64,000 nt of DNA from Spirochaetes bacterium GWB1_36_13 (lineage in GTDB: Bacteria > Spirochaetota > GWB1-36-13): positions 31,714 through 95,713 of the forward strand of contig MIAO01000061.1 in NCBI GenBank assembly GCA_001829155.1. The letters are read 5' to 3'. Numbering within the stretch: the first letter of the stretch is position 1; each line of letters opens with the position of its first letter. The notes below the pieces were generated by a model. The model ran no database searches, had not been told where the DNA came from, and worked only from the letters and a program-made list of their open reading frames with translations. Shown here piece after piece: positions 12,144-55,474 of the stretch. Both the position numbers and the translations under genes were made by a program.

Positions 12144-13925
12144 ATGAATAAACTGAAAAAAGGAATCAAACAATTTTGTCAGTCTATAACAATCAAAAAA
12201 TATAGTTTTTTTATTGTCGGTGGAACTATTCTATCAAATTTTGTTTCGCTTTTATTTGAAAAAAATTTATTGCAAATCACAAGTGATAATTTAATTGAGC
12301 AGATGCATCTCCTTCCAATCAGTCTTAAAGTGATTAATTTTATTATTAATATTATATTTCCTTTTTCAATTCCAGTTTTTTTGATTTTGAAACATTTTAA
12401 ACCTATTTCTCTTTTTTTAAGAAAAAATCATAAGCCTATGGATTCCTATACTGCCAAAAGAATATTGAACCTTCCTTTAACCATTGGTTTTTTATCAAGT
12501 TTGGGTTGGATTATTTCTTTTGTAGGCATGAGTCTCATGCTTTATATTCTACAATCAGAAAATTATATCAATTTTGAGATTTCTCAATTTCTCATTGGAG
12601 CTCTGATTCATGATCTTATTCTTGGAAGTTTATCATTTGTTGTTTCTTTTTATTTTTTTGAATATATAAACCGAAAGATTTTTATTCCATTTTTTTTCCC
12701 AATGGGAGATATTTCCCATTACACAGGTGTTGTTAATTTATCAACTCGCACTCGGTTTGTTTTTTATTTTTTAGCTATAGTTATTTTTCCTTTTGTGATG
12801 ATATCAATTCATCTTTACGATTTTTTCTGTAATGAAAGTTCTTTTCATCTTTCTCAATTTGGAAAAACATTTTTTATCATTGCTTTATTTTTTATCATTT
12901 CAGGGTTAGTATTAACTTTTCTAATGATTAAATACTATCAAAATCCCTTAAAGGCAATGAAAAACATGACAGAAAAGATCAGGCAGGGGGATTATGAAAC
13001 AAAGATGCAGGTTGTGTCTTCAGATGAACTGGGATATCTGGGAGAAAGTTTGAATCAGATGAGCAGTCAGCTCAAAAATCAGATTACAGAAATAACCAAT
13101 ATGAATAAAAATCTCGAGTGCAAGGTCAGGGAAAGAACTCAGGAACTTGAAGAAGAAAAAAACAAGCTGAAAATCAGGAATGTTGAAATTGAAAAAGAAA
13201 TTGAAATGGCGCGTCAAATTCAAAAGTCATTAATTCCTTCGGTTGAGCCTGCTCCTCATATTGCTTCATTTTATAAGCCGATGAGTCAGGTAGGCGGAGA
13301 TTTTTACGAGTTTATTCCATTTCCGGAGGAAAATAAAATCGGATTTTTTTTAAGCGATGTTTCCGGACATGGAATTCCTGCCGCTTTTATCACATCCATG
13401 ATCAAAAGTTTTATTTTGCAGGCAGGAAATGTCAAAAAAAACCCGGCGGATTTTTTATCTTATCTCAATGAAGGGCTTTACAAGCAGACTGCGGATAATT
13501 TTATCACAGCTTTCTATGGAATTTATTCCTATGAGGATTATTCCATGATTTACGCGAATGCAGGGCACAATCCGCCTTATGTCATTCAAAAAGACAGTGT
13601 TGATTTTCTTCCGATGTTAAAAAAAGGTTTTCCGCTTGCTGTTTTTGACAATCAATTTCTTGAAATGAAAAAAACGCTTTATCAAAATAATAAATTTTTT
13701 TTTCAATCAGGCAATCGGGTCCTTCTTTATACAGACGGGCTTACCGAAACTGTCAATGACTTAAATAAAGAATACTATTTTGAAAATGAGATAGAAGAAA
13801 TATTAAAAGGCTGTTATTCCCTTTCCCCGAAATTATTCATAGAAAATCTTTATCAGAATTTAGCCCGTTTTAGGGGCAATGAGAGTTTTGAGGATGATAT
13901 TTGTATGATTTGTTTTGATGTATAA
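12144..13925 (+). CDS. Membrane sensor with HAMP-like region and PP2C-type (SpoIIE/RsbU-family) serine phosphatase domain
   Basis: N-terminal multi-TM region, then a coiled-coil/HAMP-like segment (SDELGYLGESLNQMSSQLK). C-terminal SpoIIE motifs are GGDFYEF...FFLSDVSGHGIPAA...YTDGLTE. Confidence 0.75.
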   Translation: MNKLKKGIKQFCQSITIKKYSFFIVGGTILSNFVSLLFEKNLLQITSDNLIEQMHLLPISLKVINFIINIIFPFSIPVFLILKHFKPISLFLRKNHKPMDSYTAKRILNLPLTIGFLSSLGWIISFVGMSLMLYILQSENYINFEISQFLIGALIHDLILGSLSFVVSFYFFEYINRKIFIPFFFPMGDISHYTGVVNLSTRTRFVFYFLAIVIFPFVMISIHLYDFFCNESSFHLSQFGKTFFIIALFFIISGLVLTFLMIKYYQNPLKAMKNMTEKIRQGDYETKMQVVSSDELGYLGESLNQMSSQLKNQITEITNMNKNLECKVRERTQELEEEKNKLKIRNVEIEKEIEMARQIQKSLIPSVEPAPHIASFYKPMSQVGGDFYEFIPFPEENKIGFFLSDVSGHGIPAAFITSMIKSFILQAGNVKKNPADFLSYLNEGLYKQTADNFITAFYGIYSYEDYSMIYANAGHNPPYVIQKDSVDFLPMLKKGFPLAVFDNQFLEMKKTLYQNNKFFFQSGNRVLLYTDGLTETVNDLNKEYYFENEIEEILKGCYSLSPKLFIENLYQNLARFRGNESFEDDICMICFDV

Positions 13926-49716: not shown

Positions 49717-51768
49717 ATGGTTAATCTGAGTACAGGGTACAAGAAGTTATTAAAAGAATTTATTTATAATCCTTCTTATTCTAATATCCTTCTTTTTATT
49801 CAGGAAAACTCTCCCGTTAATCTTGAAAAACTGAAAGAAAAATACGATGAACAAGAAATGAAACTGGTTATGAAATATCTTATCGATAATGAGCTTGTCT
49901 CAAGGGATGGAAATGATTTTTCTTTTACCCCTTCATCCATCTATACTTATTTTGATGTTTTTCTTGAAAACTTTAAACTGGCAAAAGGAATTTTTTATGA
50001 TCAAGTCAGAAGTAATTTTGAACAAAAAGCTTTTAATACAATTATTTTAAAAGACCGGCTTAATGAAACTTTTGAAAACTTGAATAAATATTCAAGAATT
50101 GCGGCTAAATTTAAAAGTTATTATAAAAAAGAAGACCTTTATAAAAAATCGGCTCTTCTGGCTTTTGATGAAATCAATGCTGATGCTCTTGAAGTTTATG
50201 AAGTAGATGGAACTCAATTTAAAATGGTCGCTTTTAAATATCGGGAAACCCCTACTTTTTCTCAGACCGAAGAAGAACTGAAACATTTAAACAATCTGGT
50301 TAAAATCAGGGAACCTTTGATTATGAATAATCCTCAGAATGATTCTATTCGTGAAAAAAAGATTTTTGCTATCTTTCCTTTGCTGGAAGAAGAAGGCGGG
50401 GAGAAAAAACTTTCCAATATTCTTTTATTCGGCTTTGACAACCGAAAAGTTTCCATGATTAAAGATCACATCTTGGAGCTTTTAGACGGATTTACTTTGA
50501 ATTTCCGCTTGACTCTTAAAACGGTTAAAATGATCCAGATTCTCGAAGATAAAGTCAATCAAAGAACCAGTGAATTAAAATCAGCAAATAATCAGCTGAA
50601 AGAAATCAACCGCGAGATTGATGAAAAAAATAAAGAGAAAATCAAAGAGATCGGAATTGCTGCCAATATTCAAAGAACGGTAGTGCCGGACCCTAAAAAA
50701 ATACCAAAAATCGGACCTTTAAATCTGGGCGCGAGCTGGGTGGCGATGCCTCTTAAAATGAAGGGGCTGGATAAAGAAAAAGCGAATGTAAAAGAAGTAG
50801 CAGGGGATTTTTATAACTACTACAAGGTGAATGACGATGAAATTGGAATTGTGATTGCAGATGCATCCGGGCACGGAATTCCTGCCGCTCTTTTGACCAT
50901 GATGGCGAGTGCGGCGTTTTCTTTTAATTCCAGAAAAGGCGGCACTACCGCAGATATCTGTGAGAGAGCCAATAAAGAGATCCATAGAGCGATCGGGGAT
51001 ATCGGGTATTATCTGACTGTTTTTTATCTGAAAGTCAATCTGGTGACACTGGATGTTGAGTTTACCAATGCTGGGCACCACTATGCGATTGTTTATAGGA
51101 GAGAGACAGGAGTCATCGAACACTGGAACAGTGAAGGATTTTTCATTGGAGCTTTTGCGGACGCCGCTTATGGTTATGGAAGAAGCAAGCTTTATCCGGG
51201 GGATAAAGTGGTGATGTACACAGACGGTTTTGATGAATCCAGAAACTCAGAGGGAGAATTCTTCGGAGAAGAAAGAATTGATAATTTCACGATTGAAAAT
51301 AAAGATGTTCATTGCAAGGATTTTGCGGATATGCTTTTTAACTATGTCAACGAATTCTGTAATTTTGCGCCGGGATGGGACGACCGAACTCTTGTGGTTA
51401 TTGATGTGAATCCGGATGGTACGGTAGATGTAGCCAATAATAAATCCAAAAACATCATGGTGGAAAACATGATGACTTATCTGAATAAAAAAGAATATAA
51501 CAACGCTGAAAAAGAAGTCTTGAAATACATTGAGCACCATGGGGAAAATTCTGAAATTCTCCTTCATTTGGGCGATGTCTATTATCTTCAGGGAATGTTT
51601 AATAAAGCGGAAGCCGCTTTCCAAAAAGCCCGAAAAGCTGATCCAAAAGACCCGCGGCCTCTCCAGGGATTGACAAAGGTAGCCAATGCGACTGAAGACT
51701 ATACAGGAGCGGCAGAATACAGTCAGGAAGCAACCCGCCTTGCCCTGATTCAGAAAAAAAAGAAATAG
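49717..51768 (+). CDS. PP2C-type (SpoIIE/RsbU-family) serine phosphatase with C-terminal TPR repeats
   Basis: GDFYNYY...IVIADASGHGIPAA...YTDGFDE SpoIIE motifs. C-terminal TPR-like repeats (YYLQGMFNKAEAAFQKA). Confidence 0.7.
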   Translation: MVNLSTGYKKLLKEFIYNPSYSNILLFIQENSPVNLEKLKEKYDEQEMKLVMKYLIDNELVSRDGNDFSFTPSSIYTYFDVFLENFKLAKGIFYDQVRSNFEQKAFNTIILKDRLNETFENLNKYSRIAAKFKSYYKKEDLYKKSALLAFDEINADALEVYEVDGTQFKMVAFKYRETPTFSQTEEELKHLNNLVKIREPLIMNNPQNDSIREKKIFAIFPLLEEEGGEKKLSNILLFGFDNRKVSMIKDHILELLDGFTLNFRLTLKTVKMIQILEDKVNQRTSELKSANNQLKEINREIDEKNKEKIKEIGIAANIQRTVVPDPKKIPKIGPLNLGASWVAMPLKMKGLDKEKANVKEVAGDFYNYYKVNDDEIGIVIADASGHGIPAALLTMMASAAFSFNSRKGGTTADICERANKEIHRAIGDIGYYLTVFYLKVNLVTLDVEFTNAGHHYAIVYRRETGVIEHWNSEGFFIGAFADAAYGYGRSKLYPGDKVVMYTDGFDESRNSEGEFFGEERIDNFTIENKDVHCKDFADMLFNYVNEFCNFAPGWDDRTLVVIDVNPDGTVDVANNKSKNIMVENMMTYLNKKEYNNAEKEVLKYIEHHGENSEILLHLGDVYYLQGMFNKAEAAFQKARKADPKDPRPLQGLTKVANATEDYTGAAEYSQEATRLALIQKKKK

Positions 51769-51820
51769 CCAAAACTTGTTTTTCTGAAATATAATTATTA
51801 AATTTAAATGGTTCAATTTA

Positions 51821-51894
51821 GGGCTCATAGCTCAGTTGGTTAGAGCGGATGACTCATAATCATTAGGTCGGAGGTTCAAGTCCTCCTGGGCCCA
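51821..51894 (+). tRNA. tRNA with CAU anticodon (elongator tRNA-Met, or tRNA-Ile2 if lysidinylated); no encoded CCA
   Basis: A 74-nt cloverleaf traced by hand. The acceptor stem is GGGCTCA/TGGGCCC (7 bp, one G-U). D-arm GCTCAGTTGGTTAGAGC. Anticodon loop CTCATAA with U33-CAU-A37. T-arm GGAGGTTCAAGTCCTCC. The G1-C72 pair argues against an initiator. Confidence 0.85.
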
Positions 51895-51996
51895 TTTTTC
51901 ATTAAAACAATCTAGAATCTCTTCATTTTTTGAAGCTTTTAATATTAAGTAGTCAGGCTGTCGATTATTGAAAACTATTTCCATCAATCGTCTTGT

Positions 51997-52158
51997 TATA
52001 CTGAAATAATTTTAAATTGCAAAAAAACGACTCCTTTCTGTCATTCCCGCGAAGGCGGGAATCTATTGACAATAAGTGTTTTAAATTAAAGATTCCGGTC
52101 TTTTGCAAGCAAAAACCGGAATGACAATTTTGCATTTTATATTCAGTTATTGTATATA
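51997..52158 (+). repeat. MITE-like palindromic repeat, copy A
   Basis: Shares 5' TATACTGAAAT(A/G)ATTTTAAATTGCAAAAAA and 3' GACAATTTTGCATTTTATATTCAGTT termini and the GTCATTCC...GGAATGAC core with copies B and C. Confidence 0.75.
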
Positions 52159-52351
52159 TCATTGATATTTGTAAGTTGATCAGAAAGTGTCATTGTCTTT
52201 TCTGATGCAATCTTTCATAGTTTTGTTTTGCTCATTAATCGAAGCCATGCGGTCACTGAGCACAGCCGAAGTGACACCTCGACTCCGCTCGGTGTCCGAG
52301 TTCATTTAAATAATAATCGACAGCCTGAATAGTTATTTGAAAACTTTTTTA

Positions 52352-52514
52352 TATACTGAAATGATTTTAAATTGCAAAAAATCCATGTCATTCCCCGGCT
52401 TGACCGGGGAATCTATTGAGCAAGATAATCAATTTACTGGATTGTCCGGTCAAGCCGGACAATGACAATTTTGGGTTGAAAATATTTGCAATTTAAATTC
52501 AATTATGTATATAC
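52352..52514 (+). repeat. MITE-like palindromic repeat, copy B (diverged core with compensatory hairpin changes)
   Basis: Same termini as copy A. The core hairpin is CCCCGGCTTGACCGGGG instead of CCCGCGAAGGCGGG. The second arm GTCCGGTCAAGCCGGAC is the reverse complement of the first. Confidence 0.75.
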
Positions 52515-52651: not shown

Positions 52652-55216
52652 TTATTTTACTACAAAATTGACTAATTTATTAGGGACAAAAATTTCCTTC
52701 ACAATCGTTTTGCCTTCCATATGTTTGGAAACTGCTTCTTTTGCTTTTGCAATAATCGCCTCTTTTGGAGCATCCACCGGCATATCCAGATTGGCTCTGA
52801 GTTTTCCATTGACCTGAACCACAATTTTTACTTCGTTGTCGATCAGGAAAGACTCATTGTGAGACGGCCAGGAAAGCTCATGAATGGATTGGCTTTTTTC
52901 AGATAAAACGGAATAAAGCTCTTCTGAAATATGAGGTGCGATCGGAAAGAGGAGGCGGAGAAGGATCAGAGTTCCTTCTTTTAAGATTTTTTTATCTTCA
53001 TTGTTTTCAGGCTGAAAAGAAGTCAGATGGTTTAAATATTCCATCAGAAAGGCAATTCCTGTGTTGAACCGGTATTCTACTGTAAAATCTTCCGTTACTT
53101 TCTTAATGGTTTTATGGATGATTTTATTGATTTCAGCCCCGGATTTAGAGAGGTTTTCCAGTTTCAGGGTTTTCGGGTCAATATTTTTTAATTCTTCAAA
53201 ATTCTTTAAGGCTAGTTGAAAAATTCTTCTTAAAAATCGGGCAGCGCCTTCGATTCCGGTATCGCTCCATTCCAAATCTTTTTCCGGCGGGGCTGCAAAA
53301 AGCATAAAAACCCGGACTGTGTCGGCGCCGTATTTTTTCACCATTTCATCGGGATCGATACCGTTTTTCTTGGATTTCGACATTTTATCCACTTTCACAG
53401 TCAGTTCAGCCTGACAGTGAGGGCATTTTCCGTTATCTGTCTCAGAAGGCGGGATATATCCATGAGTTTTGCAGTGAAAAGAGTGGGCTACCACCATCCC
53501 TTGGGTAAGAAGTCTTTTAAAAGGTTCATCTGAATCCACCAAACCCAAATCCCGCATCACCTTGTGAAAAAATCGGGAGTAGAGAAGGTGCATCACAGCA
53601 TGCTCAATTCCGCCCACATACTGATCTACGCTCATCCAATAATTTCCTTCTGTTTTCTCAAAAGGGGCACTCTCGCATTTCGGAGAAGCGAAGCGGGCAT
53701 AATACCAGGATGAATCCACAAAAGTATCCATAGTATCGGTCTCTCTTCTGGCGTGGCTGCTTCCGCAGACAGGACAGGTCACATTCATAAAGGCTTTAGA
53801 GGTGGCAAGAGGGTTTCCTCCCTTTGAAAAATCCACATCTTCAGGCAAAATCACGGGAAGGTTTTCCAGTTTTTCAGGAACAATTCCGCATTTATCACAG
53901 TAAATCATCGGAATTGGGGTGCCCCAGTATCTTTGGCGGGATAGGAGCCAGTCTTTCAGGCGGTAATTGACTGTTTTGGTTCCGATCCCGATTTCTTCTG
54001 CTTTTTCGATGATTTTTTCAATCGCTGTTTTATTGTCAAGCCCTGAAAAATCAGAAGAATCGGTCAAAATTCCTTCTCCTGTATAGGCTTCTTTCATTTC
54101 AGAGACAGAAAGCTCGGTTCCCTTCGGCTGGATTACAACTTTGATCGGGAGATTGTATTTTTTTGCAAAGAGAAAGTCTCTCTGGTCGTGGGCAGGAACG
54201 CACATAACCGCGCCCGTGCCGTATTCCATCAAGACAAAATCAGCGGCGTAGAGAGGCGTTTTTTCGCCTGTAAAAGGGTGAGTCACATATTCTCCGGTAA
54301 AAACGCCGTTTTTATCCACACCTTCCGCTGTCCGCTCTATTTTGCTCTCTTTCTTGACTTTTTCGACAAAATTTTTCAGTTCAATATTTTCCGGTTTTTT
54401 TTCAAGGATTTTTTTAATCACGGGGTGCTCAGGAGCAACTGCCATATAGGTAACGCCGAAAATAGTATCGGGACGAGTGGTGAAAATAGGAAGGTCTTCA
54501 TTGTTCCATTTAAAATCAGCCTGAAGCCCGATTGATTTACCGATCCAGTTTTTCTGCATGGAAAGAACCCGTTCCGGCCATCCGCCTTCCAGTTCTTTAT
54601 GCCCTTCTAAAAGTTCTTCCGCGTATTGGGTGATTTTAAAATACCACTGGGAGAGTTCTTTCGGTTCCACTTCGCTCCCGCATCTCCAGCACTGACCGTC
54701 TTCCACCTGCTCATTGGCAAGAACAGTCTGACATTTTTCGCACCAGTTCACGGTTCCTTCTTTTTTTTCCACCAAGCCTTTTTTGAGCATTTTTAAAAAC
54801 AGCCACTGATTCCATTTATAGTAATCGGGTTTACAGGTAGCGATTTCCCTTTCCCAGTCGTAGGAAATTCCGATTTTCTGGATTTGGGACTTCATATTTT
54901 CAATGTTTTGAAAGGTCCATTTTGCGGGGTGAATCCCGTTGTCGATGGCTGCATTTTCAGCAGGGAGCCCGAAAGCGTCCCATCCGCCTGGATTCATCAC
55001 ATTAAACCCCTGGAGCCTCTTGATTCTGGAGATGACATCCCCAATGGTATAAACCCTCACATGCCCCATGTGAAGCTTTCCGGAAGGGTAGGCAAACATC
55101 ATTAAAACATAAAATTTTTCTTTTTCTTGATCTAGAACGGCTTTGGAATAATTTTTTTCTTCCCAGAGTTTTTGCCATTTTTTCTCTATTTCCCAGAATT
55201 GGTATTCTTTTTCCAT
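52652..55216 (-). CDS. leuS: Leucine--tRNA ligase
   Basis: HMGH (class I HIGH motif variant), a CP1 editing domain, and KMSKS. 854 aa. Confidence 0.95.
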
Positions 55217-55324: not shown

Positions 55325-55474
55325 TATACTGAAATGATTTTAAATTGCAAAAAAAAGACCCCTTCCGGTCATTCCCGCGAAGGCGGGAATCTATTGACAA
55401 TAAGTGTTTTAATTTTTTTTGCAAGCAAAATCTGAAATGACAGTTTTGCATTTTATATTCAGTTGTGTATAATA
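55325..55474 (+). repeat. MITE-like palindromic repeat, copy C (A-type core, partly degraded 3' arm)
   Basis: Near-identical to copy A through GTCATTCCCGCGAAGGCGGGAATCTATTGACAATAAGTGTTTTAA. There is a deletion in the second hairpin. Confidence 0.75.

Follow-up and report, generated by a model that had tools for sequence, protein, structure and literature searches.

Two probable nested MITEs between tRNA-Met and leuS in an uncultured groundwater spirochaete

Among TA-targeting MITEs that derive from elements of the IS630/Tc1-mariner type, Correia and RUP are the usual examples. In plant genomes, nested insertions, in which one MITE resides within another, are common. Prokaryotic MITEs have been defined as elements, typically shorter than 500 bp, that possess TIRs of 4-30 bp and flanking direct repeats, occupy AT-rich intergenic sites, and form stable stem-loops (PMC10969869). 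Coxiella QMITE2, the Neisseria Correia elements, and pneumococcal RUP exemplify the group (PMC10969869). A 5'-ANT-3' duplication is common to bacterial IS5 and eukaryotic Pangu transposons (Han et al., PMC4482050).

Here, we focus on an intergenic region of GWB1_36_13, a groundwater MAG that is phylogenetically isolated. The region lies in a 64-kb stretch of DNA, which we call the window; positions refer to the window, and L numbers denote other contigs or loci. We explain the odd structure of this region as two nested MITEs. Specifically, the DNA at 51954-52327 is very probably a copy of a non-autonomous, non-coding DNA transposon of ~202-214 nt, called MITE-2, that is split by a second element, called MITE-1. 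Both appear to be new, that is, previously undescribed families of a well-known kind of element. The value of the finding lies in annotation and assembly, and no new kind of biological system is revealed.

In its architecture, MITE-2 resembles described prokaryotic MITEs: dozens of dispersed intergenic copies exist in an AT-rich genome, and the interior of the element folds strongly. Every structural hallmark of a MITE is present, namely, length, TIRs, flanking repeats, copy number, non-coding content, AT-rich intergenic location, and stem-loops. Unlike described prokaryotic MITEs, MITE-2 has no sequence similarity to annotated records (plasmid collection, Rfam). Like IS5 and Pangu (PHIS), MITE-2 has a putative 3-nt ANT duplication in which N varies between copies and is matched within a copy; the duplication is the single trait that links them, and MITE-2 sites carry an extra T...A context (TANTA). 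MITE-1, for its part, is like the MITEs of the IS630/Tc1-mariner type: it is ~160 nt long, it has imperfect TIRs and internal hairpins, and TA is duplicated on insertion. The combination of the two is reminiscent of plant nested MITEs in that MITE-1 interrupts MITE-2 and intact paralogues represent the empty site. Unlike in plants, both partners are bacterial, and the same TA of MITE-2 has been hit independently in two copies, that of the window and that of L104, and a different TA has been hit once, in L116.

The intergenic region and its inverted repeat

The region is bounded by a SpoIIE/TPR phosphatase gene (49717-51768, + strand) and by leuS (52652-55216, - strand). Between them lie, in order, tRNA-Met(CAT), a left repeat arm, a repeat called copy A, a GC-rich "island," a right repeat arm, and a repeat called copy B. 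On the reading preferred here, the features are as follows.

51821-51894, + strand: tRNA-Met (CAT), called by ARAGORN and by Rfam RF00005 (73.9 bits); a neighbor gene, outside MITE-2
51951-51953, no strand: left target duplication of MITE-2, AGT, with T before it
51954-51998, + strand: left part of MITE-2, with the left TIR CAGGCTGTCGATTATT at 51954-51969 and the target TA of the nested insertion at 51997-51998
51999-52156, + strand: MITE-1 copy A, a 158-nt palindromic element inside MITE-2, with TA duplicated at 51997-51998 and 52157-52158
52159-52327, + strand: right part of MITE-2, the "island," 169 nt, with the right TIR AATAATCGACAGCCTG at 52312-52327
52180-52305, - strand: 41-codon ORF, judged non-coding; a chance open frame through the MITE interior
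52250-52298, no strand: GC-rich imperfect palindrome, a 20-pair hairpin that is a conserved subterminal module of MITE-2; the window copy is a weakened CACAG variant
52328-52330, no strand: right target duplication of MITE-2, AAT, with A after it
52354-52511, + strand: MITE-1 copy B, a separate insertion 27 nt to the right of MITE-2

An earlier note on this DNA had called attention to a perfect 15-bp inverted repeat around the island. The repeat is exact: TCAGGCTGTCGATTA occupies 51953-51967, and 52314-52328 is its precise reverse complement. These are the sole two matches to the 15-mer and its reverse complement in the 64-kb window when up to 2 mismatches are allowed, and 0.03 are expected by chance. 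The repeat is also longer than first noted, extending to 17 perfect base pairs (51953-51969 and 52312-52328) and to 22 of 24 matching positions (51946-51969 and 52312-52335). The note was likewise correct about the high GC content of the island relative to this genome (a peak of 0.57 in 60-nt windows, at 52230-52289, versus 0.336 for the whole window, which is itself below the mean of 0.367 for the other fetched contigs of the same organism). The 0.57 peak is slightly above the values of nearby coding regions (0.40-0.55). Repeat copies A and B are confirmed, and the window contains a third at ~55328-55471, upstream of leuS. The nested stems that had been described within the island do pair, but they are parts of one long imperfect hairpin at 52250-52298.

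MITE-2 copies, ends, and target sites

The query used to scan JGI metagenome contigs joined the repeat arm to five inner bases, made degenerate to suit both arms (TCAGGCTGTCGATTATTRWWWA). It matched 74 loci, nearly all of them in two datasets; a rough estimate of the matches expected by chance is ~1. Exact proteins from one locus in each dataset (two loci) are named Spirochaetes bacterium GWB1_36_13 at NCBI and, therefore, the scanned loci are other parts of the same genome or population. At the level of the exact pattern, MITE-2 occurs in only three datasets of the JGI collection, two of which carry GWB1_36_13 proteins. At many of the scanned loci, a forward and a reverse match are spaced ~180 nt apart. 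Because the arms recur as paired ends at many loci, they are the TIRs of a multi-copy element, MITE-2.

A census of the scanned loci yielded ~100 similar intervals with 103 distinct ends, as judged by outward flanks. Thirty-three distinct copies, including the one in the window, are complete, and among these, 202 nt (9 copies) and 214 nt (4 copies) are the most common lengths. MITE-2 is thus dispersed, with at least 50 copies in this uncultured groundwater spirochaete. The TIR is CAGGCTGTCGATTATT, 16-17 bp, and its 16-nt columns are invariant in 28 aligned copies. None of the 33 complete copies lies inside a long open frame; all are intergenic, and their flanks are very AT-rich (~80-90% A+T). 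Both orientations occur, orientation here being that in the stored contig sequences rather than that relative to flanking genes. The left part of the window copy is colinear with the intact 214-nt copies L145, L146, L129, and L166. Its right part is 92-96% identical to 214-nt-subfamily copies (L129, L166, L109, L161, L116, L145, L146, and L139) and 83-90% identical to copies in other subfamilies. A BLAST search of PLSDB plasmids with a 214-nt MITE-2 copy gave no match. Ten matches to the 17-mer were present in viral contigs; all were single and unpaired, and they were judged to be chance.

The flanks of the copies reveal a pattern. Across the 103 distinct ends, the four positions directly before CAGG are T (73/103), A (102/103), N, and T (102/103), such that outside CAGG...CCTG, the sequence reads T-A-N-T on the left and A-N-T-A on the right. 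The ANT triplet is the same on both sides in 23 of the 33 complete copies, versus 34% expected from base composition (p = 2.5e-5). The simplest reading is that MITE-2 makes a 3-nt ANT duplication in a TANTA target, which, because the A and the T are invariant, is indistinguishable by sequence from a 1-nt N duplication inside TANTA. The window copy's own duplication is imperfect, AGT on the left versus AAT on the right, with two of three positions alike. A joined-flank search among the fetched loci found no empty-site allele for any MITE-2 insertion.

What moves these elements can be proposed from their target sites. The ANT/TANTA target suggests that this genome has, or once had, an IS5-type transposase. 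Specifically, and on the strength of the ANT duplication, an IS5-family (PHIS-superfamily) DDE transposase making a 3-nt staggered cut would move, or would once have moved, MITE-2 in trans. For MITE-1, we infer a TA-targeting transposase (IS630/Tc1-mariner-like). An autonomous IS with MITE-2 TIRs was not found in ~0.67 Mb of this genome. No pair of TIRs 0.6-4 kb apart (up to 3 mismatches) encloses a gene; such pairs reflect either adjacent MITE copies or ends that are unmatched. Lone TIRs in L158, L107, L128, L157, and L164 were considered as IS ends and rejected, as they belong to truncated or MITE-1-disrupted copies. An all-against-all BLASTP comparison of 470 ORFs (at least 150 aa) identified no multi-copy gene.

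A MITE-1 insertion inside MITE-2

Comparison with intact paralogues accounts for the internal structure of the window copy. The intact 214-nt copies (L145, L146, L129, and L166) read ...CATCAATCTTCTTCT-TA-TCATTGATATTTG..., and the window reads ...CATCAATCGTCTTGT-TA-[158 nt copy A]-TA-TCATTGATATTTG...; that is, CTTGT is present rather than the CTTCT of the intact copies, followed by TA and then TCATTG. In silico deletion of 51999-52158, which removes copy A and one TA, leaves exactly 214 nt that are colinear over their full length with L145, L146, L129, and L166. Therefore, copy A is a MITE-1 inserted at a TA inside MITE-2, with duplication of the TA. The boundaries of copy A are ambiguous by 2 nt in either direction because of runs of TA. 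It is owing to this insertion that the spacing of the MITE-2 ends is stretched from 214 to 374 nt and that the right 169 nt appear to be an "island." We propose an order of events in which MITE-2 inserted at a TANTA site 59 nt downstream of tRNA-Met, duplicating ANT, and the 158-nt MITE-1 copy A later inserted at a TA inside MITE-2, duplicating TA.

The nesting is not peculiar to this locus. MITE-1 has inserted into MITE-2 at least three times independently, in the window, in L116, and in L104, with intact MITE-2 copies as paralogous empty sites. The L116 insertion is at a different TA from that in the window and is in the opposite orientation. At L104:7865-8230, a B-type MITE-1 occupies the same TA as that at window 51997-52158 (T-TA-TCATTGATA) in a different MITE-2 subfamily. 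The TA hit in both the window and L104 may be a local insertion hotspot inside MITE-2. Other disrupted MITE-1/MITE-2 combinations exist in L107 and L158.

MITE-1 is also abundant in its own right: 672 kb of this organism's other contigs contain 46 intervals. The element is ~150-165 nt long and has imperfect TIRs (TACTGAAAT...CAGTT.TGTATA), two internal hairpins (GTCATTCCC...GGGAATC), and a TA duplication. Copy B and the third copy, copy C (52354-52511 and 55328-55471), bracket leuS in the same orientation. On the - strand of copy B, 52369-52486 resembles the Wolbachia sRNA WsnRNA46 (Rfam RF02625) with a score of 42.1 bits (E 3e-7), below the gathering score of 65.3. The match suggests that WsnRNA46, too, may be a palindromic repeat with a relationship to the MITE-1 type. 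Finally, a B-type MITE-1 at L158:2640-2665 carries an extra segment, CATACTTCGACTCTGCTCAGTAC, in its second hairpin that resembles the MITE-2 hairpin arm CACTTCGGCTCCGCTCAGTGAC, which hints that MITE-1 and MITE-2 may have exchanged a hairpin module.

Repeats of this kind explain why short-read assemblies break at this locus and at dozens of others in this spirochaete. Contigs end inside repeats at 52328 (L081), at 51979 (L088 and L089), and at 52013 (L087); L082, L083, and L084 end inside MITE-1 copy B; and among JGI contigs, 15 or more terminate within a MITE-2 copy. Assemblies of the same population nonetheless bear out the window sequence: L086 agrees with it through 51768-52478, and the only mismatch is at 51189, in the upstream gene. 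A further contig, L085 (ERZ27254732 k141_190693), follows the window through MITE-1 copy A (L085:12224-12520 versus window 51940-52240); in place of the island there then come a different 492-aa ORF and a short-chain dehydrogenase gene. In the right half of the MITE, L085 differs from the window at five sites (one 1-nt deletion, three substitutions, and one 1-nt insertion). We considered L085 as an alternative allele of the island and rejected that reading; probably, the assembler jumped between two MITE-1 copies or the two copies recombined.

The LeuRS encoded in the window and that of GWB1_36_13 are 100% identical; beyond this organism, relatives are distant. Among 5.8 billion proteins, the nearest other LeuRS relatives are 68%, 67%, and 66% identical, and contigs of GTDB-representative genomes contain no LeuRS above 55% identity. 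The closest of these relatives (68% and 67%) show no synteny at the leuS 3' end, with different genes downstream. Two MITE families, with their ends and target sites, are thus defined in a lineage whose nearest LeuRS is 68% identical.

Hairpin, open frames, and alternative readings

The GC-rich hairpin is present in every complete copy aligned and is nearly invariant across subfamilies, whereas the center of the element is variable. In the window copy, the folding energy is -21.3 kcal/mol (z -2.6) for the + strand and -29.0 kcal/mol (z -4.1) for the - strand. The hairpin in consensus copies reaches -33 to -35 kcal/mol (z ~-6), and z ranges from -2.6 to -6.3 over the copies. Taken as a whole, the 172-nt island shows no unusual structure on the + strand (z -0.75) and a moderate degree of structure on the - strand (z -2.46). 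In an alignment of 21 distinct copies, 94.7% of the hairpin cells are paired.

Such stability and near invariance could mean that it is the hairpin that functions, as a small structured RNA gene or a cis-regulatory RNA, with the MITE as its carrier; stable stem-loops are indeed a known feature of MITE transcripts, which can be exapted (PMC10969869). The earlier note had offered a small structured ncRNA and suggested an Rfam search, but with Rfam 15, tRNA alone reached the gathering score in the window region, and a permissive search of that region and of a consensus copy returned only sub-threshold hairpin look-alikes (miRNA models, and WsnRNA46 on copy B). The substitution pattern also argues against an RNA. 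Compensatory changes were found at none of the 20 hairpin pairs, covariation is no higher than in shuffles, two adjacent positions are unpaired in 8 of 20 distinct copies (the window's CACAG variant among them), and one C.A/U.G position favors opposite strands in different subfamilies. The hairpin lacks a downstream T-run and hence does not qualify as an intrinsic terminator, and leuS has its own terminator-like hairpin (52643-52617) right after its stop codon. Given, moreover, that the hairpin is dispersed in 50 or more copies lying both ways round in the stored contigs, we consider an RNA gene quite improbable. A small protein fares worse still. The 41-codon minus-strand frame exists as the note had described it, and the frame is open in the 214-nt subfamily; the note's preference for structure over the ORF was nonetheless right, as the ORF is not conserved and has no protein relatives. 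Specifically, the ATG is ATT in the 202-nt (main) subfamily, frame-shifting indels separate the subfamilies, no Shine-Dalgarno sequence lies upstream, and an exact look-up in public assemblies shows no gene call for the ORF. A phmmer search of 1.84 billion representatives gave only three matches, at E 1e-4 or weaker, and no family. We give the protein reading virtually no weight.

The two remaining alternatives concern the arms rather than the interior. An exact 17-bp inverted repeat around a few hundred base pairs of intergenic DNA with promoter-like hexamers, with assembly breaks near the arms, is what one would see if a site-specific recombinase inverted the 342 bp enclosed by the arms, thereby turning, for example, a promoter. 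The arms, however, are not private to this locus: the same arms flank ~200 nt at 32 or more other loci, with target-site duplications, and the long spacing here exists only because MITE-1 inserted. No recombinase or integrase is found in the Pfam annotation of called genes in the window at ~39.9-62.7 kb, and the sole independent contig that spans the segment, L086, is in the same orientation as the window. The breaks themselves are misplaced, as the Logan contigs stop at 51979, which is 10 nt beyond the arm's inner edge, and the branch point of an inversion is expected elsewhere; exact contig ends were therefore dropped as evidence for inversion, the break points lying off the inner edges of the arms. 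An invertible switch is accordingly very improbable. Nor does the tRNA gene, which lies 59 nt upstream, hold up as an explanation. The note had called the site after the tRNA a classic integration hotspot and had considered an attachment-site scar or a core left over from a larger mobile element. Of the 32 other complete copies, none adjoins a tRNA; tRNA genes are present at just two of those 32 loci, in both cases more than 2.5 kb away from the copy. Because the copies elsewhere are not near tRNAs and are all intergenic, the adjacency to tRNA-Met is incidental. The flank is a 3-nt ANT duplication and not a copy of the tRNA 3' end (51860-51894), no direct repeat of which is present downstream; no integrase appears in the Pfam annotation of the neighboring called genes; and TIRs with a 3-nt duplication are typical of DDE transposition. 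There is hardly any chance that the locus is an att-site scar or the remnant of an integrative element targeting tRNA-Met. The note was correct in seeing a mobile element; that element, however, is a complete 214-nt MITE rather than a remnant, and the 15-bp repeat belongs to its own TIRs. One partial MITE-2 copy, L138:3610-3673, lies ~94 nt from a tRNA-Ala gene.

The nested MITEs, then, are the preferred reading, and the hairpin would be kept either because the copies are young or because transposition requires it in cis, rather than because it is an RNA gene. The hairpin is better conserved than the center of the element, so some function beyond the youth of the copies is conceivable. A functional cis-module, either a subterminal site that an unusual transposase needs for binding or for recognizing the hairpin, or an RNA stabilizer or processing site spread to more than 50 intergenic regions, strikes us as unlikely, albeit worth keeping in mind. 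If the hairpin did stabilize or direct processing of RNA, those regions of this deep-branching spirochaete would share a post-transcriptional handle.

Two minor observations concern genes near the locus. Public gene calls include a 48-51-aa "protein" that runs antisense to tRNA-Met and into the left end of MITE-2 (..FNNRQPDY..), an ORF that is almost certainly spurious. Its positions are as follows.

Window 51832-51987, - strand: 48-51-aa antisense call
L085:12116-12268: the same call
L088:6654-6800: the same call
L089:2966-3112: the same call

In addition, a 61-nt stretch is 72% identical between window positions 13333-13393 and 50837-50897, the latter inside the SpoIIE/PP2C phosphatase gene (49717-51768). 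The two genes that contain it may be paralogous and have a conserved motif in common.
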